In this document: one piece after another, positions 1,781 to 13,071 of the stretch
How positions within the stretch are numbered: the stretch's first letter is position 1
How the letters are laid out: each line of letters starts with the position of its first letter
Virus record (IMG/VR): IMGVR_UViG_2675903352_000015
Span: 1 to 14,377 of that record
Direction: 5' to 3' (one strand)
DNA from: a virus
Taxonomy: Duplodnaviria; Heunggongvirae; Uroviricota; Caudoviricetes
Length of the DNA stretch: 14,377 nucleotides
Made by a program: the position numbers and the translations under genes
The notes under the pieces: model-generated
Seen by the model: the letters and a program-made list of their open reading frames with translations, nothing else
Databases searched by the model: none
Told to the model about the DNA's origin: nothing

Positions 1781-2863
1781 TCATTTTCTCTGGCTGATCT
1801 TTACCGGATAACCATCCCGAAGATCAATTAAGTGCTCCGGTTCAGAAGCAAACCATGCATAAGATCCCCACGCCAATTCTGGTATTGCCTTTTTAAAAGG
1901 CAGAGCACTTCTGTCAATAAATGCCGTAAGGAATGCAAGATTTTTCTCGCTGAACCCAGCGTCAATAGCCAAATGAGTGAGAGTAACTTTTCGTTCCCTG
2001 TTTATAGGCCCATCTGTCGCAACTACCTCAGTGAAAACTACAAGCATATCCGAACCCGTTCGGTCCTCTCCCAAATCAATCAAAATAATATCTGGAAGTG
2101 CTTTTGAGGCATCAATATTCAGCCCCAATGCTTTTGCCAATACATCATCCTGAGCAACAACTTTATTCCCAGATTCAGACAACCAGAGCACAGTTGGATT
2201 CTTAAGAAAATTAGGAGCAAAAACTTCGATGACGGCCTTAGCTATTGTACTTGACGGGCCCGGAGCTAAAGTTCTCTTCTCTCCATTTGGGAAAGTGACG
2301 ACTACGGCATCAGCAGCAATCACTGCCCCTGATTTCAATAAACGCAATCTAGCAAGAGCGGCTTTGTTCAAATGATTTTCCTGCCAGGAACTTATTGCAC
2401 TCAGCAGCGAATCTCCTTCAAGCCCAGCATCAAAGAGTGCTGCAAAAGAGCGATTCAAACTGTAACGAGGATGAGAGGATGTGGTGGGTATACCTTTACG
2501 CTCAACAATTGCATTGCAAGGTATTAGGCCATTTTTTATAGTTTCATCACGTATTGGCTCACGCGTATTTTCCGCATACCATGCATCAGCAGGCCTTATC
2601 TTTTGTTTAGAGAAAGTCATCTTTACCCAACTTTCTCTGGACGCATCATCAGTAAGAGCAGCCTGTGAATCTCCCATACTTACAACCTGGCTGGGCCTTA
2701 TCCATCGCCCCAGCCCCTCAACCGCACCAGCATAAAACATGACAAAAATTGTTTTTGCAGCTATTTCCCGAATTAAATATCCACGATTCTCAGTCCCTTC
2801 AGGGAAAATTAATGGTAATCTTTCCCGGATAACATTCAATGGGGGAACAACAGGCAGATTCAT
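1781..2863 (-). CDS. putative type II restriction endonuclease (resembles BsuBI/PstI family, from memory)
   Basis: 360-aa ORF directly downstream of the methyltransferase on the same strand, with ATGA start/stop overlap at 2860..2863; AT-rich composition; size and context match REases paired with Eco57I/PstI-type methyltransferases. Family assignment is from recollection only. Confidence 0.6.
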   Translation of the reverse strand: MNLPVVPPLNVIRERLPLIFPEGTENRGYLIREIAAKTIFVMFYAGAVEGLGRWIRPSQVVSMGDSQAALTDDASRESWVKMTFSKQKIRPADAWYAENTREPIRDETIKNGLIPCNAIVERKGIPTTSSHPRYSLNRSFAALFDAGLEGDSLLSAISSWQENHLNKAALARLRLLKSGAVIAADAVVVTFPNGEKRTLAPGPSSTIAKAVIEVFAPNFLKNPTVLWLSESGNKVVAQDDVLAKALGLNIDASKALPDIILIDLGEDRTGSDMLVVFTEVVATDGPINRERKVTLTHLAIDAGFSEKNLAFLTAFIDRSALPFKKAIPELAWGSYAWFASEPEHLIDLRDGYPVKISQRK

Positions 2864-4692
2864 GCAATCATCACTCCATAGAAACCAGCGATAGTTCTCT
2901 CAATAATCCGTCTGTGGACGCCGGCATCAATTAACGATTGAATCTCCATCACCTGCTCCAGAGAAGGCAACGGGATTGAATTCAATTCATAGGCCGAAAC
3001 AGCAACACTTCCGCTTATACACCTGAACGCCCGATCGACAACATGCGAATTAAGTAGCATATCAATAACATCAGGGCGAACCGCAGAGAACAATCCGTTT
3101 GAATACACAATATTAATATGGTTTTCAACTACTACGCCACCAGTTTCATCTATAAATCCCTGAGGTAAAATCGCAGCTAAAATCCTTCTGTCCTGCTCCT
3201 TCGATGTTGTCCGCTGAACAAGCACACATTCAGATTTTGTCACAAGGAAACCCTGTTGTGGGGTTATATCGATATAGGGAACATGATTTTTTCTGTCTGC
3301 GCTAAAACGGAAACCAGCTGAAGTTATTGATTCCGCCCAGACTAATGGATAGCTATTTTTTCCTTTCGTCGTACGCAACTGCGACTTAAATCGATTCCAG
3401 ACTAACTGACCTGTAGAGACTGAGTATCCCAGATCAGCTAAACGCGTAGACATCTGTTTTAATACATTAAGAAAACAAGCATCATCTTTAACTCGTGGCA
3501 AAAGCCACGTTGCTCCACCTTTTTCTATATCAACATTACCTATTTTCTCAATTTTTGCTTTGTTCAACCCCTTAGGGACAAGTGAGGATACCTGGGCCCG
3601 AACTTTATGTTCTCCCGCCTTGAATGCTGTCAACATTGTTTCCTGGAGAACATCGTCAAAGACCCCATCCCTGTCAGCGACGAAATCAAGGGCATACGGA
3701 GTAGTTTTTTCGGTCAAAAGGGTTCGCAGCGCGGTGAAATACTGCCCACCAAGAAAAGAAGTTGGCGTAAGAAATGCAATAACTCCTGTTTTCTCTTTAA
3801 CCATGCGAACAGCTAAGTCGGTGAACAATCCATATAGATTTGCATGACCAAATAACGAACGAGAATATTTTTCTCTCGTTTTAATATCGAGAGTGACACG
3901 TCCGTAAGGCGGATTCCCTACCACAAGATCATAACCAGAAATTTTATCTTGCTGAAGCGCATCAGCAACAATAATTGTATCTTCAGGCAATCTACGTTTT
4001 ACCTTTACACATAGTGGCATTAGTACAGATTCGAGCAATACCAAACTCATCCAAGCCGCAAATGGATCGATTTCTATCCCCTTTAAACGACGACTGATTC
4101 TCCTCAACATCCATTCAGGGGAAGACCCCTTGTCTTTTTTTAACATTCGAATGGCTACTGGTGCCAAAAATGCACCGCCACCACACGCAGGATCAATAAC
4201 CGATGCATGAGAAAAATCAACACCAGACTTTTCAGCCAGGTCCAAGAGACGCGCTACCAAAGGTGGGGGGGTATAGTAAGCCCCCAATTCCGAACGGTAA
4301 GCGGATGGCAGCATTACCGTATAAATTGACCCAATCAGATATCCAGCGTCCTCCGCCGGAAATTGAGCAATAAGCTCACCTGTTCGTTCAGCGAGCTCGC
4401 GTGCATCACATGGAATGTCTTCTATGTAAACAGTGTGCGGTACTGCCCTCATTTTAATGCTGCTTTTTTGCTTTTTTGCAAGGGTATCCCAATATGCAGC
4501 TACGATGCTGAAGCAGTATGAGCGGGCATGCATCAACCTTGACTGCCCGGTTTTGTAATTGCCCGCATAACCTTTGGCCATGGCTTTACAAGTTTGATAT
4601 CTTTCCAGATTAGAAAACTCATTATCTGTAAAAAAATCAAAATGTTGCACATTCATAATGTAAAATCCTAATGTATCAAACATGCGGGCCAT
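2860..4692 (-). CDS. gamma-class N6-adenine DNA methyltransferase (Eco57I/PstI-like modification subunit)
   Basis: 610 aa; motif X GAYYTPP, motif I DPACGGGAFL (SAM binding), motif IV NPPYGRV in gamma-class order. Start choice is uncertain (ATG 4692 with weak SD; internal ATG at MNVQHF has an AGGA upstream). Confidence 0.85.
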   Translation of the reverse strand: MARMFDTLGFYIMNVQHFDFFTDNEFSNLERYQTCKAMAKGYAGNYKTGQSRLMHARSYCFSIVAAYWDTLAKKQKSSIKMRAVPHTVYIEDIPCDARELAERTGELIAQFPAEDAGYLIGSIYTVMLPSAYRSELGAYYTPPPLVARLLDLAEKSGVDFSHASVIDPACGGGAFLAPVAIRMLKKDKGSSPEWMLRRISRRLKGIEIDPFAAWMSLVLLESVLMPLCVKVKRRLPEDTIIVADALQQDKISGYDLVVGNPPYGRVTLDIKTREKYSRSLFGHANLYGLFTDLAVRMVKEKTGVIAFLTPTSFLGGQYFTALRTLLTEKTTPYALDFVADRDGVFDDVLQETMLTAFKAGEHKVRAQVSSLVPKGLNKAKIEKIGNVDIEKGGATWLLPRVKDDACFLNVLKQMSTRLADLGYSVSTGQLVWNRFKSQLRTTKGKNSYPLVWAESITSAGFRFSADRKNHVPYIDITPQQGFLVTKSECVLVQRTTSKEQDRRILAAILPQGFIDETGGVVVENHINIVYSNGLFSAVRPDVIDMLLNSHVVDRAFRCISGSVAVSAYELNSIPLPSLEQVMEIQSLIDAGVHRRIIERTIAGFYGVMIA

Positions 4693-4906: not shown

Positions 4907-5263
4907 TTATTCGGGGCTATATTTTGTCACCCTGCGTATCCGCGCTTTCGCATTACGCTCAATCTGGATTAGCTTTTCTATATTTTTTCGCCTTTCCCGC
5001 TCCTCCTGGCGCAAGAGCCTTACATCATCTGCCAGTCTGGTTTCTCTTTTCGCCACAGAGAGCATCCAGTCAAATGGCTCCACAACTGCACCGCAGATTT
5101 TACAGCGGACCTGACGCTCTTTTTCGTCAACCCGGACAGAAGCGTGATGGCAATATGGTCTTTCCGATGGCTCATAAAGAAAATTAACCTGATTACGAGG
5201 GTTATCCTCTTTTACCGGAAATAAAACAATATTGCTTAACTCATCTTCTGGTTTTATTTCCAT
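4907..5263 (-). CDS. hypothetical protein with putative zinc ribbon (C-H-H ... C-x2-C) and basic C-terminus
   Basis: 118 aa from ATG 5263..5261, preceded by AAGGAGAGGAGC on the minus strand. The ORF-track start (GTG 5320) directly abuts the upstream stop and lacks an SD. Motif YCHHASVRVDEKERQVRCKICG. No family recognised. Confidence 0.5.
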   Translation of the reverse strand: MEIKPEDELSNIVLFPVKEDNPRNQVNFLYEPSERPYCHHASVRVDEKERQVRCKICGAVVEPFDWMLSVAKRETRLADDVRLLRQEERERRKNIEKLIQIERNAKARIRRVTKYSPE

Positions 5264-5320
5264 GCTCCTCTCCTTTGATGCGAATGCCAGCGGTAATTGA
5301 AGCCTGATAGCTAATTTCAC

Positions 5321-5743
5321 TCACAGTACCGCCTCCTGAAAATCACCCTGATAGAAAGCCAGTACACGCTGCATAACTTCACTCTTCCGGCACTCGCGAC
5401 AGATTATGTTCTGATGTCTGTCGTAGCGGCGTATTTCTCCGTCTGGTAATGACCAGATAAGGTCCGGATCAACCGCAGATGGTTTCTTCAGCTTTGCCCT
5501 TGAGAGCTTTTTACGGGCATTTTGCCAGTCCTTACGCGCCTGTTCAGACGGGAATAACCCGTAACCAGAGTTGCATACATCGCCACTGGCAACCAGCTCT
5601 CTGGCCAGAACGCTCATCAGATATCTTGTTGCCCCAGTTTTAGCTTCCAGTTGTCGTAACGTCTCGCGCCCACTCTGGCGTACGAGTTCAACAACCTGCC
5701 CTTTAATTTTTTCCCGCTCTTCTTGTGTAAAAACTTTTGCCAC
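5321..5743 (-). CDS. hypothetical protein (possible winged-helix/HTH) in the position where a helicase loader would be expected
   Basis: 140 aa; GTG start 5743..5741 with AGGAGGG upstream; lies 40 bp downstream of the O-like gene; no Walker A motif, so not DnaC-like. Confidence 0.5.
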   Translation of the reverse strand: MAKVFTQEEREKIKGQVVELVRQSGRETLRQLEAKTGATRYLMSVLARELVASGDVCNSGYGLFPSEQARKDWQNARKKLSRAKLKKPSAVDPDLIWSLPDGEIRRYDRHQNIICRECRKSEVMQRVLAFYQGDFQEAVL

Positions 5744-5783
5744 AAGCCCTCCTGAAAATTACCTCATGACCAGAAATTAACAC

Positions 5784-6749
5784 TTACCCCCTGAAGCCCG
5801 GCGGAATTTCGTTATCCGGTTCAGAAATGTGATTCACGCAACGCTGTACAGGCGAACGCCCCAGACGAATAACCAGCTCATCCCATTTTTCGCGAAGCTT
5901 TGACGGGCTCATGACGTTTTTTACCCAGAATGGATCCCGCTGTACCCGACCAAACATTTCGCAAATTTGTCTGTGAGTTCTGCCATCCAGCATCCGCATT
6001 GTGCGCACATCATTGGCCCATGCAGTCCAGTTTGGTTCTTTCGGTCGCATGATTTCGCCATCATCGCTGGCAGCCTGCTCGTAAAGACTCACGATTCGCC
6101 CCCAGATCCACTGCGCACACGCCAAATCTTCCTGGCTGCCCCACTGGCGTTTTTTCGCACTGAACACAACAGCGTCAGGGTGTCGGGTTAAAAAATCCTG
6201 TTCAGCCGTCTGCCTGTCCGGTTGCGAAGATTCCGGACGAGAAGTGTTTTTATTCTCTGTAGTAATCTCTGTTGTATTCTCTGTAAGATCATCGGGCCAT
6301 TTTGACCCGATGACATTGGGTCGTTTTGAACCAATGGAGCGTGTCATTTTGGCTCCTTCCATCGTGTCATTTTGACCTGATGGAGCGGCGCATTTTGACA
6401 TGATGGATTCGCTCACTTTGCCACCATCTAAAAGCTCGCTCTCGTAATTAATCGTGTAAAAATTAGTCATATCACGCTTTGATTTGTTGAGCTTTTCACA
6501 ACGCAAAAGCCCCAGCGTTTTCAGACTTGCAAATGCGCGTTTTAACGTTGACTCTGACCAGAAAGGGAACTGTTCCAGCCATTGTTCTGTTGTGTTATAA
6601 ATCCAGCGAACACCATCACATTCCATGCCGGAACCGGTATCTCTCAACCAGTAATGCAGCTGCTGCAACACGATGGCTTCGTTCAGACCAATTTTCATCG
6701 CCAGCTGCGTGTTTATAACCAGCGGGCGTTCAGCAAAAAGGAGCTTCAT
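5784..6749 (-). CDS. phage replication initiation protein (lambda O / Rac YdaU-like replisome organiser)
   Basis: 321 aa; strong SD (GGGGGAGGGG) before ATG 6749; follows the Cro-like and YdaT-like genes in the rightward-operon position; an iteron array and AT-rich repeats lie inside the central linker of the gene, as in lambda O/ori. Confidence 0.65.
   Translation of the reverse strand: MKLLFAERPLVINTQLAMKIGLNEAIVLQQLHYWLRDTGSGMECDGVRWIYNTTEQWLEQFPFWSESTLKRAFASLKTLGLLRCEKLNKSKRDMTNFYTINYESELLDGGKVSESIMSKCAAPSGQNDTMEGAKMTRSIGSKRPNVIGSKWPDDLTENTTEITTENKNTSRPESSQPDRQTAEQDFLTRHPDAVVFSAKKRQWGSQEDLACAQWIWGRIVSLYEQAASDDGEIMRPKEPNWTAWANDVRTMRMLDGRTHRQICEMFGRVQRDPFWVKNVMSPSKLREKWDELVIRLGRSPVQRCVNHISEPDNEIPPGFRG
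6250..6430. repeat. putative replication origin: six 23-bp-spaced iterons plus three tandem 12-bp AT-rich repeats
   Basis: TTTTG cores at 6300, 6324, 6347, 6370, 6393 and (CTTTG) 6416, unit consensus about GTCATTTTGACCnGATGGAG; adjacent TATTCTCTGTAG-like 12-mers with TCTCTGT at 6254, 6266, 6278. Confidence 0.6.
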
Positions 6750-6770
6750 CCCCTCCCCCAGAACACGTTA

Positions 6771-7196
6771 TCAATGCGCCACCACGGCATTTCCCGCCGG
6801 ACCACCACGATTCATCTGATTGAAACCAGCAATTACCACCGCGACAAGTTCATCAGCGTCTCTCACCAGTCGTTCATGCGTATCCACCAGTTCCCGAAAA
6901 TAATCGGAACTGTGGCTGCGCATCCAGGCCACCAGCGGAGGTGGCATTGCCTTTTCGATCGCTGGTAACAAAGCCTGAATTTTTTTAACCGCATCAGGGG
7001 TGTCTTTCTCCACCCAGCGGAAAATTTTCTGAGTATTGCGAGCCAGGGCTTCCGGATGGCTGTCGTCATACAGTTCCGGGAATGTCATACCCAGCTCAAA
7101 ATAAGCCCGGGTTATTTCAGCTGCCGGAACTTTTTCACCGTCCGGACGCGCCCAGGCATTCATCGCCATGCGGATGTGTTCATGCTTGATTTTCAT
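6771..7196 (-). CDS. YdaT-like protein (Rac prophage family; role assignment from context)
   Basis: 141 aa; overlaps the end of the upstream Cro-like gene by 17 bp; SD GGGGA upstream; position and size match Rac ydaT. Confidence 0.5.
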   Translation of the reverse strand: MKIKHEHIRMAMNAWARPDGEKVPAAEITRAYFELGMTFPELYDDSHPEALARNTQKIFRWVEKDTPDAVKKIQALLPAIEKAMPPPLVAWMRSHSSDYFRELVDTHERLVRDADELVAVVIAGFNQMNRGGPAGNAVVAH

Positions 7197-7452
7197 GAAT
7201 CATCCCCGGTGTATTTGGTGTGTTAACTTTACATCCAACAGGTAAACCGTCGGTTGGGTTAGGATAAATATCAGGGCGAATTTCATGCGGGGTAACTTCC
7301 CACTTCATTAGCTGGCATAACGGAATTACCTGCTTTGGGGGAACACCAAAGCTAAACCATTGCCAAACAGTCTGTTGAGCAACTCCCATATAACGACCTA
7401 TTTCAGCTTGAGTGTGTTTCTGCCTAATTTTTTCGCGAGTGCTATCTAGCAT
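7180..7452 (-). CDS. Cro/YdaS-like HTH transcriptional regulator
   Basis: 90 aa; strong SD (GAGGAGGG) before ATG 7452; HTH segment TQAEIGRYMGVAQQTVWQW; divergent from the repressor gene across an operator-bearing intergenic region. Confidence 0.65.
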   Translation of the reverse strand: MLDSTREKIRQKHTQAEIGRYMGVAQQTVWQWFSFGVPPKQVIPLCQLMKWEVTPHEIRPDIYPNPTDGLPVGCKVNTPNTPGMIHENQA

Positions 7453-7481
7453 TTTGCCCTCCTCTAAAAAACTATAAGCAA

Positions 7482-7523
7482 ATCCTACAATAAAAAACTG
7501 TATGCGATCAACAGTTTTTTATT
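7482..7523 (-). promoter_or_regulatory. pR-like promoter with operator palindrome O1 (AAAAACTGT-N9-ACAGTTTTT)
   Basis: Perfect 13-bp inverted repeat AATAAAAAACTGT (7489..7501) / ACAGTTTTTTATT (7511..7523); on the minus strand TTGATC (-35, 7511..7506), 18-bp spacer, TAGGAT (-10, 7487..7482) upstream of the Cro-like gene. Confidence 0.5.
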
Positions 7524-7561
7524 GTGATGCTTTTAACAGTATTTGCCTGTAAAATTGGAAA

Positions 7562-7963
7562 ATGATGAACGCCCTAGAAGTATCTATGTACAGAATCAGC
7601 AAGCTTCTTCAGGAAACTGGATGGAGCCAGGCTGAGCTTGCCCGTAGAATTGGTGTGACACAGCAAACTGTTCAACAATGGGTCAGCGGTAAGGCAACAC
7701 CTAAAGCCTCAAGTTTGGATAAACTGGTTGAGGTTACAGGGCATCCATTGCATTGGTTTTTATTGCCTCCTGAAGAGAGGGAGCAAATTTTCACCCCTGA
7801 TACGATGAAAATTGGTCCTCGCCAACGCGAACTGCTCCAAGCTTTTAGTGCGTTTCCTGAGGAAGACCAGGAAAAAATGCTTCAAGAAATCAAAGACAAG
7901 AAAAAATCAATGGAAGAAACCATTGCCCGATGGTTAGCGGCACAAAAAAGCCGCCTGGCGTGA
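7562..7963 (+). CDS. CI/RacR-like prophage repressor (XRE-family HTH, no S24 peptidase domain)
   Basis: 133 aa; HTH SQAELARRIGVTQQTVQQWVSGKATP; sits between the two operator-bearing divergent promoters in the same arrangement as lambda cI; no C-terminal Ser/Lys autocleavage motif recognised. Confidence 0.7.
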   Translation: MMNALEVSMYRISKLLQETGWSQAELARRIGVTQQTVQQWVSGKATPKASSLDKLVEVTGHPLHWFLLPPEEREQIFTPDTMKIGPRQRELLQAFSAFPEEDQEKMLQEIKDKKKSMEETIARWLAAQKSRLA

Positions 7964-7990
7964 CCACTGAACAAGAAGAGGAGTTATGCC

Positions 7991-8068
7991 ATGAGTACAG
8001 CCCTTTCTCCGATAGTTTCAGAATTCGAAACAACCGAACAAGAAGACAGTTATAACTTCAAGCATTGA
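7991..8068 (+). CDS. possible small ORF (25 aa, acidic) downstream of the repressor
   Basis: ATG 7991 preceded by GAGGAG with a 7-nt spacer; MSTALSPIVSEFETTEQEDSYNFKH; lies between the repressor stop and the terminator. Could be non-coding. Confidence 0.25.
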   Translation: MSTALSPIVSEFETTEQEDSYNFKH

Positions 8069-10590: not shown

Positions 10591-13071
10591 ATGAGTAAAG
10601 TCTTTATTTGCGCCGCCATTCCGGACGAACAGGCAACAGCAGAAGGCGCCAAACCTGTGGCCACTGCCATTGAAGCAGGCGACGAACGCCGGGCAAGAGC
10701 CAAATTTAGCTGGTTATTTCTGGAACAATACCCGGAAGCTCAGGACTGTGCTTATAAATTTCTTGTCTGCGAGGATAAACCCGGCATGGCCCGCCCTGCT
10801 CTCGATTCCTGGGATTCCGAATATATGCAGGAAAACCGCTGGAATGAGGAGTCGGCTTCCTTTGTTCCGGTCGACCCTGAACCGGACGCAGAAATTGTTA
10901 ACTTTAATCAGTTATCTGACGACAAGCGGGCTGCTGTCCTTGTCAGGTTCGGTACACATGAAAACATCACCGTGGATATGGTCATCAATGCAAGCGGGCT
11001 TCTCGGCGATGACGAGATGACGACTTTTGATGGACACCTCGCTGAAGCAATTATCCGGACCAGAGAAATTAACGCCATGTATCCAGAGCGTCAGATTGAG
11101 TACATCAACGATGCCAGACGTGATTTAAAACCAACAGCCAAATGGCCCGACGTTCAGGCGTATTTTCTCGAACGTAAAAAACGCATGGAAAAGGAGCGCA
11201 AAGAAGGTGGCGCATATAATTCCGTCGTCGATCTTGCCCGCGCCAGAGTCAACCGGCAAGGCACTGAAAACTCTGCAGGAAAAACTGACTCCGTAACTGC
11301 TGTCATTCGTCGCGAATACAGGCAGACATGGAAAACACTGGATGAAGAACTGGCCTACGCTTTCTGGCCTGGTGATATTGATGCCGGAAACATTGACGGC
11401 AGCATCCATCGCTGGGCAAAAAATGAAGTTATCGACAAAGATCGCGAAGACTGGAAGCGTATTTCCGCATCAATGCGCAAACAACCTGATGCCGTTCGCT
11501 ACGACCGTCAGACTATTTTTGGCCTTGTCCGTGAGCGTCCGATCGACATTCACAAAGATCCCGTGGCGCTGAACAAATACATCACTGAATACCTGGCGAC
11601 AAAGGGCGTGTTTGAGGATGAAGAAACAGACCAGAGCACTGCTGATATTCTCCAGCCGTCAGCAGCACAAACTGATGCAGTGGAAACTGAAGTATCTGAT
11701 ACCCAAAAAAATGAAAGCGCGCTGGAAACTGAACCATCTGTAGAGCGTGAGGGGCCGTTCTACTTCCTCTTCACCGATAAGGATGGCGAAAAATATGGTC
11801 GTGCAAACAAACTTTCTGGTCTGAATAAGGCGCTGGCTGCAGGGGCTACTGAAATCACGAAAGAAGAATATTTTGCCCGTAAAAACGGCACGTACTCAGG
11901 TTCACAACAAAATACTGGTGCATCTGACACGACCGCACAACCAGAGCCGGTAAAAGTTACCGCTGACGAAGTAAACAAAATTATGCAGGCAGCCAATATC
12001 AGCCAGCCTGACGCCGATAAGTTGCTTGCTGCCTCTCGCGGAGAATTTGTTGCAGGGATTAGCGACCCGAATGATCCGAAATGGGTGAAGGGGATTGAAA
12101 CCCGCGATTCTGTAAACCAGAACCAGCAAGAATCGGAACAGAACGACCAGAAAGCGGAACAAAACAGTCAAAATGCGTTACAAAACGAGCCAGAAACGAA
12201 ACAACCTGAGGCAGTAGCGCAACAGGAACCGGAAAAAGTCTGCACCGCCTGCGGTCAGAGCGGTGGCGGCAACTGCCCTGATTGTGGCGCGGTGATGGGC
12301 GACGCAACATACCAGGAAACATTCGATGAAGAGAATCAGGTTGAAGTTCAGGAAAATGATCCGGAGGAAATGGAAGGCGCTGAACATCCACACAAGGAGA
12401 ATGCTGGCAGCGCTCAGGACCACGCCAGCGATAATGAAACTGGTGAGACGGCAGATCCCTTAATTGTGGTGAACGGTCATCACGTTATCACATCCACCAG
12501 CAGAGTGTGGTACCACCTGATGATCGACCTTGAAACAATGGGAACCAACACCAATGCGCCCATCGTGGTTATTGGTGCGGTTTTCTTCGACCCACAAACA
12601 GGGGAAATCGGGCCAGTATTTTATATCGTTATCAGTCTGACTGACGCAATGAATACAGGGGCTGCTCCTGACGGTGGAACCATCAAATGGTGGCTGAAGC
12701 AGTCCAGTGAAGCCAGAGCTGCCATTTTAACAGACCAGGTAAAACTGAAGGATGCCCTTTCGCGGTTTCGGGAGTTCATCAACGAATACTCAGATGAAAA
12801 ATTCGTTCAGGTATGGGGTAATGGTGCAACTTTCGATAACGCAATTTTGCGCACCTCATACGAACGTCTGGACATCCCCTGCCCGTGGCGCTACCACAAC
12901 GATCGCGATGTACGCACAATCGTTGAGCTGGGAAAAACAATCGACTTTGATGCTAGAACCGTTATTCCATTCGAAGGCGTTCGCCACAATGCACTGGATG
13001 ACGCCCGTCACCAGGCAAAATACGTTTCAGCAATCTGGCAAAAACTGATCCCGAATCCGGTTGATTTTTAA
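10591..13071 (+). CDS. RecE-like prophage exonuclease: RecE-type N-terminal/central region and Cys4 zinc ribbon fused to a DnaQ-like DEDDh 3'-5' exonuclease domain
   Basis: 826 aa; GAGGT 8 nt upstream. Segment DKLLAASRGEFVAGISDPNDPKWVKGI...CTACGQSGGGNCPDCGAVMGDATYQETFDEE closely matches Rac RecE as I recall it. C-terminus has DEDDh motifs: MIDLETMG (D646, E648), WGNGATFDNAIL (D749), HNALDDARH (H799, D803/D804). Confidence 0.8.
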   Translation: MSKVFICAAIPDEQATAEGAKPVATAIEAGDERRARAKFSWLFLEQYPEAQDCAYKFLVCEDKPGMARPALDSWDSEYMQENRWNEESASFVPVDPEPDAEIVNFNQLSDDKRAAVLVRFGTHENITVDMVINASGLLGDDEMTTFDGHLAEAIIRTREINAMYPERQIEYINDARRDLKPTAKWPDVQAYFLERKKRMEKERKEGGAYNSVVDLARARVNRQGTENSAGKTDSVTAVIRREYRQTWKTLDEELAYAFWPGDIDAGNIDGSIHRWAKNEVIDKDREDWKRISASMRKQPDAVRYDRQTIFGLVRERPIDIHKDPVALNKYITEYLATKGVFEDEETDQSTADILQPSAAQTDAVETEVSDTQKNESALETEPSVEREGPFYFLFTDKDGEKYGRANKLSGLNKALAAGATEITKEEYFARKNGTYSGSQQNTGASDTTAQPEPVKVTADEVNKIMQAANISQPDADKLLAASRGEFVAGISDPNDPKWVKGIETRDSVNQNQQESEQNDQKAEQNSQNALQNEPETKQPEAVAQQEPEKVCTACGQSGGGNCPDCGAVMGDATYQETFDEENQVEVQENDPEEMEGAEHPHKENAGSAQDHASDNETGETADPLIVVNGHHVITSTSRVWYHLMIDLETMGTNTNAPIVVIGAVFFDPQTGEIGPVFYIVISLTDAMNTGAAPDGGTIKWWLKQSSEARAAILTDQVKLKDALSRFREFINEYSDEKFVQVWGNGATFDNAILRTSYERLDIPCPWRYHNDRDVRTIVELGKTIDFDARTVIPFEGVRHNALDDARHQAKYVSAIWQKLIPNPVDF

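Follow-up and report, generated by a model that had tools for sequence, protein, structure and literature searches.

The window analysed here, a stretch of DNA of 14,377 nucleotides taken at its full length, is a lambda-like prophage of the Qin/DicB type, and a near-identical copy of this prophage adjoins yccA in E. coli CAU16175. The replication initiator gene is the third gene of the rightward early operon, and its surroundings are organized as follows.

7562-7963, divergent from the early operon: cI-like repressor gene
7180-7452, minus strand: cro-like gene, first in the rightward early operon
6771-7196, minus strand: cII/YdaT-like gene, second in the operon
5784-6749, minus strand: O-like replication initiator gene, 966 nt, 321 aa plus stop (open reading frame list and translation)
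5321-5743, minus strand: DUF977/Ren-like gene, directly after the initiator
4907-5320, minus strand: zinc-ribbon open reading frame of 137 aa with no assigned function
1781-4692, minus strand: PstI-type restriction-modification pair

The two proteins of the restriction-modification pair are an N6-adenine methylase of 610 aa with Eco57I/N6_Mtase domains and an endonuclease of the BsuBI/PstI family with 360 aa. The pair lies in the early region of the prophage, apparently as cargo, and in the closest E. coli prophage, that of CAU16175, the site is occupied by other genes. Next to the initiator, no P-, DnaC- or DnaB-like gene was found. The same initiator gene, with 80-91% DNA identity, is carried by phages HannyBb, mEp460 and PhiR42_1, and in these three records no further replication gene is annotated within 3-4 kb on either side; downstream of the initiator, HannyBb has the same arrangement as the window, again without a P-type loader. 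Among other relatives, a Dam methylase gene comes next after the initiator in Klebsiella phage ST147-VIM1phi7.2, and a DnaC-like ATPase is encoded downstream of it in some. The search for promoters and terminators gave nothing in 6200-6450, and over 5500-8000 the counts were at or below shuffle expectation. Two DnaA boxes (TTWTNCACA) were detected in the window against 1.8 expected, neither of them within the candidate origin described below.

The initiator matched phrog_391 ('replication initiation O-like') over its full length (E 1.3e-96; aa 18-321 against positions 13-298 of the 298-position profile), and no Pfam family was matched at E <= 0.01. The gene is labelled 'DNA replication protein O' or 'replication initiation O-like' in phage records and 'hypothetical protein' in RefSeq. 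The following parts of the protein were distinguished.

6429-6749, minus strand: N-terminal winged-helix domain, aa 1-107, proposed to bind the iterons
5868-6152, minus strand: lambda-O-like C-terminal domain, about aa 200-294, identified by BLASTP and proposed to recruit the helicase machinery
5787-5849, minus strand: DnaT-like C-terminal tail VQRCVNHISEPDNEIPPGFRG, aa 301-321, identified by phmmer against PDB sequences

Within the N-terminal domain, the recognition helix is predicted at aa 66-78, with Ser67 as the proposed base-reading residue. The predicted fold of this domain is closest to that of the N-terminal domain of pSK41 RepA, an iteron-binding plasmid initiator domain, the two having 11% sequence identity in the structural alignment. 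The C-terminal domain part was also matched by phrog_2357 and phrog_277. Comparison with the sequences of solved structures in the PDB gave nothing beyond the 21-residue DnaT-like tail, for which phmmer reported 6aep_A (E 0.0024), 2ru8_A and 9zbt_D, in each case over the last 21 residues only. The segment VQRCVNHISEPDNEIPPGFRG matches the very end of E. coli DnaT almost exactly, its last residues VNHISEPDNEIPPGFRG are almost those of the C-terminal tail of the same protein, and the NCBIfam DnaT profile was matched at positions 160-179 of 179. In Stx and Shigella phages, O genes that differ elsewhere have 3' ends with 95-97% identity to the last 63 nt of this gene. The tail may be mimicry of a host primosome contact.

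Relatives carrying another C-terminal domain likewise terminate in P[PAH]GFR[GS]. The GFRG tail was also considered as a marker of loader-less initiators, with a regular expression that overlooked variants with one additional residue, and was rejected as a rule, since some tail-bearers have a DnaC-like ATPase gene next; in others, the next gene is DUF977, PerC-like or Dam.

The original prediction had placed six direct repeats and, beside them, three tandem 12-bp repeats inside this gene. Tandem-repeat analysis with TRF and a repeat finder recovered both the iterons and the 12-mers, the latter at 6251-6286. The elements identified are listed below.

6290-6428, no strand assigned: iteron array of six 23-nt units (repeat finder, autocorrelation, pattern matches against chance)
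6406-6428: iteron unit, degenerate, 13-nt core 6411-6423
6383-6405: iteron unit, centre CATTTTG and one half-site retained, 13-nt core 6388-6400
6360-6382: iteron unit, near-perfect 23-nt dyad, 13-nt core 6365-6377
6337-6359: iteron unit, centre CATTTTG and one half-site retained, 13-nt core 6342-6354
6314-6336: iteron unit, near-perfect 23-nt dyad, 13-nt core 6319-6331
6290-6312: iteron unit, near-perfect 23-nt dyad, 13-nt core 6295-6307
6251-6286, minus strand: three tandem 12-mers, proposed DNA-unwinding element, on the gene strand TTACAGAGAATA / CAACAGAGATTA / CTACAGAGAATA
6275-6286: 12-mer 3, TATTCTCTGTAA (TRF, repeat finder)
6263-6274: 12-mer 2, TAATCTCTGTTG (TRF, repeat finder)
6251-6262: 12-mer 1, TATTCTCTGTAG (TRF, repeat finder)
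6216-6238, no strand assigned: short inverted repeat GTCCGG-N11-CCGGAC just past the 12-mers, a weak feature

On the plus strand the iteron units start at 6290, 6314, 6337, 6360, 6383 and 6406, with start-to-start distances of 24, 23, 23, 23 and 23 nt. All six predicted repeats were therefore found in place, but the period, given as exactly 23 bp, is 24 in one of the five intervals. The predicted consensus GTCATTTTGACCnGATGGAG is present literally at 6365-6384. Units 6290, 6314 and 6360 take the dyad form CATCGGGyCATTTTGACCCGATG, and the dyad common to every unit is nnnCA-N3-TGnnn. With three of the six units degenerate, it is uncertain how many of the sites are functional; at the position of unit 6406, the Klebsiella and Citrobacter relatives have a good palindrome, GGTCAAAGTGACC. 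In the protein, the iterons code for aa 108-153 and the 12-mers for LTENTTEITTEN, aa 155-166 of the 321 residues, in agreement with the earlier assignment of the repeats to the low-complexity linker between the two domains.

The periodicity of the array was evaluated with 5000 dinucleotide-preserving shuffles, in which periods from 5 to 59 were checked. Autocorrelation at period 23 over 6290-6428 was 0.56, as compared with 0.257 +/- 0.042 in the shuffles (z = 7.2), and none of the 5000 attained 0.56 at any of these periods. By the same measure, no other segment of the 14-kb window is as periodic. The 23-mer consensus gave two matches at up to three mismatches where none was expected, and a pattern scan against chance detected no second iteron cluster elsewhere in the window. 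The second most periodic segment is a 21-nt tandem repeat, AACGAGCCAGAAACGGAACAA, present in four copies at 12121-12204 (plus strand) within the gene for an 826-aa exonuclease (10591-13071); its unit is a multiple of 3, and it is therefore probably a 7-residue peptide repeat of the exonuclease.

The 12-mers of 6251-6286 fit the family consensus (T/A)A-CAGAGA-n-TAC. The 40-mer of lowest stability in the gene, 6247-6286, lies at this block (dG -44.3; the mean over the window is -54.05, with a standard deviation of 3.9), so that, as in the lambda type, an A+T-rich segment of low stability directly flanks the iterons on the C-terminal side. With an A+T content of 70% the AT-richness of the block is no more than moderate, and some 100 further 40-nt segments of the 14-kb window are less stable. 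On the other flank of the iteron array there is a second 40-mer of low stability (6445-6484, dG -45.1), which falls in conserved sequence encoding KSKRDMTNFYTINY, where the N-terminal domain ends. The inverted repeat at 6216-6238 is situated where lambda ori has a palindrome beside its AT-rich region; relatives have a different inverted repeat, GGTTGC-N3-GCAACC, at this place.

The arrangement of these elements in other genomes was then analysed. A search with the N-terminal-domain alignment against one genome per species yielded 80 loci of 45-98% identity, including Enterobacterales, Pseudomonas, Acinetobacter, Psychrobacter, Staphylococcus, Limosilactobacillus and Thermomicrobiales MAGs. The plan of a winged-helix domain, followed by 23-nt-phased dyad iterons and then by CAGAGA 12-mers, is common to relatives of many phyla. 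In nearly all relatives, 23 (range 22-24) is the best period over the 160 nt that follow the domain, and nnnCA-N3-TGnnn dyads at multiples of 23 nt numbered 313 in the linkers against 11 in the control, N-terminal coding sequence of equal length. The outer triplet of the dyad is lineage-specific, and both half-sites change in concert.

GGT: E. coli, Klebsiella, Xenorhabdus, Staphylococcus
GGG or GTG: Pantoea, Pseudomonas, Acinetobacter
GGA: some Pantoea, Mixta
GAT: Limosilactobacillus
CGA: Psychrobacter

At least two phased copies of the 12-mer were present in 62 of 84 distinct loci, all of them found via the protein alone. Conversely, an exact scan of viral contigs with the 12-mer pattern detected tandems in the middle of the open reading frame in further initiators, each tandem being preceded by its own 23-nt-phased repeats. 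Judged by eye, the N-terminal domains seemed unrelated and to form several independent families. This was rejected by blastp clustering (E < 1e-4, single linkage), which placed 107 of 113 initiators bearing the 12-mer tandem in a single cluster and thereby makes one superfamily of N-terminal domains probable. Klebsiella phages have only the N-terminal domain and the iterons in common with the window, fused to a C-terminal domain of the Phg_2220_C type. The N-terminal domain and the iterons are inherited together.

The plan is missing from some homologues of the N-terminal domain in Bacillus and Neobacillus (L048, L051, L052, L054, L055, L057 and others; 53-58% identity), in which neither dyads nor 12-mers were found and L048 shows a period of 27 instead; the origin of these is either built differently or located elsewhere. 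Several records carry unexpected taxon labels: the E. coli-type gene (96-97% identity) appears on contigs of Veillonella parvula, Bacillota and Collinsella MAGs (L008, L009, L059), and copies of the Staphylococcus type appear under the names Nocardioides and Micromonospora (L076, L080). Such labels are probably binning or contamination errors in public records. An exact 12-mer match at 765-787 of a giant-virus MAG contig (L186) lies in a long open reading frame with an (RDYN)n peptide repeat of period 21, and looks like a coincidental protein-level repeat and no origin.

Conservation by codon position was compared pairwise among 52 distinct relatives. The N-terminal domain gave identities of 0.93/0.97/0.74 at the three positions, a normal coding signature, as against 0.93/0.90/0.92 for the iterons and 12-mers, and amino-acid identity was lower in the linker (0.84) than in the N-terminal domain (0.93). 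Since the period is 23 nt, all three reading frames occur among the iteron cores, which are translated as SK, QN or KM. Codon usage was examined in the repeated TExT motifs, defined at the protein level in 81 distinct open reading frames. Thr was encoded by ACA in 107 of 107 cases and Glu by GAG in 107 of 107, whereas in the rest of the same frames ACA accounts for 27% of Thr and GAG for 46% of Glu. In the E. coli/Klebsiella group, cores and spacers were conserved equally (0.914 versus 0.916), and the constraint therefore spans the whole 140-nt array, beyond the 13-nt cores. These results altogether indicate that the iterons and 12-mers are under selection at the DNA level.

Of all columns in the N-terminal alignment, residue 67, located where helix 66-78 starts, is the best predictor of the iteron class. 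The residue is paired with the base beside the invariant CA of the iteron as follows.

Ser67: T, 34 cases
Asp67: G, 19 cases
Lys67 or Arg67: A, 7 cases
Asn67: C, 1 case

The few exceptions to this pairing are among the T class. The large classes are confounded by phylogeny, but several switches appear to be independent, with recurrences in distant lineages. Outside residue 67, the Pantoea allii locus L024 (Lys, GGACA) shares 91% identity with L022 and L006 (Asp, GGGCA), and the nearest relatives of L084 (Lys, GGACA) and L086 (Asp, GTGCA) belong to other classes. Literature searches with the iteron or 12-mer strings returned unrelated papers only, and no description of the residue-67 rule or of the CAGAGA motif was found in the searchable literature, older subscription papers and reviews being outside the search.

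The locus was next compared with the origin of lambda, whose annotated record has four iterons inside O, with starts 20, 24 and 23 nt apart, followed by an AT-rich region. By BLASTP, aa 147-294 of the window initiator were aligned with aa 135-270 of lambda O (35% identity over 148 aa, E 6e-28), and in this alignment the last iteron and the TENTTE segment of the window stand opposite the last iteron and the AT-rich segment of lambda. The window and lambda have the following order in common: DNA-binding domain, iterons, A-rich segment of low stability, inverted repeat and C-terminal domain. The candidate origin lies within the initiator gene between the two domains, as in lambda, the C-terminal domain is homologous to that of lambda O, and the six units spaced by 23-24 nt exceed the at least four dyad-symmetric iterons, about two helical turns apart, that characterize the lambda type. 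The lambda iterons, too, are dyad-symmetric with an A-rich centre and are about 23 bp apart. The same parts have been described for lambda and Stx phage origins, the latter with six iterons (PMC7466680); Stx phages 933W and P27 thus agree with the window in iteron count.

The differences from lambda concern both the DNA and the protein. The iterons of the window are of the GGTCA-AAA-TGACC type and those of lambda are TCCCTC-AAAAC-GAGGGA, an unlikeness noted at the outset. In the window, the A-rich segment is made up of tandem copies of one defined CAGAGA 12-mer, and in lambda of an irregular A-tract. The N-terminal domain is not matched by Phage_rep_O (PF04492), for which lambda O scores 5.7e-36, and BLASTP gave no similarity between this domain and the N-terminus of lambda O. 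Lambda O is without the DnaT-like tail that the window initiator has, and lambda has an adjacent P gene, whereas none follows the window initiator. The element agrees with lambda in layout and C-terminal homology, and departs from it in the N-terminal family and the P gene, two defining features of the lambda family proper. Because of the different N-terminal family and the lack of a P-like gene, the element is less lambda-like than was implied. The distinct initiator specificity that had been proposed is supported by the N-terminal domain outside PF04492, by the different iterons and by the co-variation at residue 67.

In lambda itself, one good copy of the 12-mer core, GTCAGAGAATTC, is found just past the AT-rich region (L167, 660-675), where it forms the left arm of the known palindrome, and the AT-rich region ACAAAAGAAAAAAGAAAAGATTAT looks like a decayed CAGAGA tandem.

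Plasmid replicons of the RepA_N type (pSK41 Rep) of Gram-positive bacteria were also considered. In these, the Rep boxes occupy the centre of rep, the linker can be dispensed with, a host replication protein is bound by the C-terminal domain, and ori is swapped together with the N-terminal domain as a module (PMC5703833). The window has the same topology, with the candidate initiator-binding repeats in the centre of the gene and the peptide they encode as a linker, and in the predicted domain fold and in logic it resembles RepA_N replicons equally. The two differ in that the window is a prophage and not a plasmid, has other repeats together with the 12-mer, and carries a C-terminal domain of the lambda O type; the RepA_N family (PF06970) gave no Pfam match in the window initiator. 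The comparison also took in the DnaD/DnaB-type replisome organisers of Firmicute phages and their hosts, such as G38P of SPP1, whose oriL lies inside gene 38. SPP1 encodes a helicase loader and a helicase alongside, whereas the window encodes neither beside the initiator.

Taken together, we conclude that 6216-6428 is very probably the replication origin of this lambda-like (Qin/DicB-type) prophage, situated in the linker-coding part of its own initiator gene. As judged from sequence comparison, the best-supported description of its function and layout would be an intragenic iteron origin of the lambda type, minus the PF04492 domain and the adjacent P gene. We propose that the initiator is produced from the rightward early transcript and that dimers of its N-terminal winged-helix domain would bind the dyad iterons through the core CA-N3-TG, with residue 67 reading the base just outside CA, in the window Ser with T. 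Occupation of five or six sites phased by 23 bp, about two helical turns, would give a bent nucleoprotein complex like the lambda O-some, and the resulting strain could melt the adjoining A-rich block of CAGAGA 12-mers. The lambda-O-like C-terminal domain and the DnaT-like tail would then bring in the host helicase machinery, which is invoked because no phage P, DnaC or DnaB gene is adjacent. Helicase loading is the weakest part of this proposal. The DnaT-like tail hints at the use of host primosome contacts, but it does not cleanly mark modules without a loader. In the searchable papers, no binding, unwinding or origin activity is reported for this initiator family.

Other roles for the repeats were weighed against that of an origin. 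The iterons could be sites at which the initiator exerts autoregulation, copy control or incompatibility (by titration or handcuffing), replication starting elsewhere in the prophage. Plasmid iterons have control roles of this kind, and the co-variation of protein and iteron bears on recognition, not on firing. Even so, this reading is improbable: the iterons abut the least stable DNA of the gene, an invariant 12-mer element conserved at the DNA level; the window has no other iteron cluster; and in position the arrangement is homologous to lambda ori, which has been defined by experiment (PMC7466680). Alternatively, the conserved block might be mainly a recombination junction for the swapping of N- and C-terminal initiator modules and not a part of an origin. 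Such a role leaves the iterons unaccounted for, and phages of Firmicutes, Chloroflexi-type MAGs and Proteobacteria all retain the motif, DNA exchange by homology at this rate being impossible between them. The same 12-mer block of about 40 nt does join different N-terminal to different C-terminal domains, a 40-nt stretch is 97.5% identical between the prophage and Stx phages with otherwise unrelated O genes, and the lambda record marks the recombination points of hybrid phages just past the AT-rich region; module swapping, however, is likely a consequence of the conservation and not an alternative to origin function. We regard a junction as the main role of the block as highly improbable.

Least probable of all is the view that the repeats exist for the sake of the protein or the mRNA, either as a low-complexity flexible linker or as RNA or DNA hairpins affecting translation or mRNA stability. 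Although the region codes for a low-complexity linker, a period of 23 is not a multiple of 3 and the cores fall in three frames; the Thr-Glu codons are invariant where the peptide permits 8 combinations, and third positions are conserved while amino acids drift. A repeat at the protein level was rejected on these reading frames, the codon-position conservation and the codon invariance. Each dyad could in principle form a hairpin, and co-variation of the half-sites by itself would also fit a stem, but a hairpin model does not predict co-variation between an iteron base and one of the residues in the DNA-binding domain. Structured RNA was rejected, as no Rfam family was matched anywhere in the window.

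With an origin as the preferred reading, a wider and much more tentative proposal may be made. It is possible, but rather doubtful at present, that the CAGAGA tandem, in 2-4 copies and always directly behind family-specific iterons phased by 23 nt, is more than a generic AT-rich stretch and a sequence-specific origin element of a very large superfamily of phage initiators across phyla, and that together with the residue-67 rule it constitutes a predictive grammar of origins. The reading of single-stranded DNA by plasmid Rep proteins has been shown, and the tandem could be read by a conserved surface of the initiator, for instance as single-stranded DNA, or by a conserved host factor. If this is true, the grammar of CAGAGA and residue 67 would locate phage origins and assign their specificity and incompatibility from sequence alone.

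For this prophage, the analysis places a candidate origin and its initiator in a gene that is labelled 'hypothetical protein' by RefSeq and is not covered by Pfam. The recurring plan could let the origins of temperate phages and prophages be found by sequence alone. A shared initiator specificity could likewise be predicted, and hence replication interference or incompatibility, and orthogonal pairs of initiator and origin could be designed. The apparent absence of a loader, together with the DnaT-like tail, points to a possible route by which such phages take over the helicase-loading machinery of the host.
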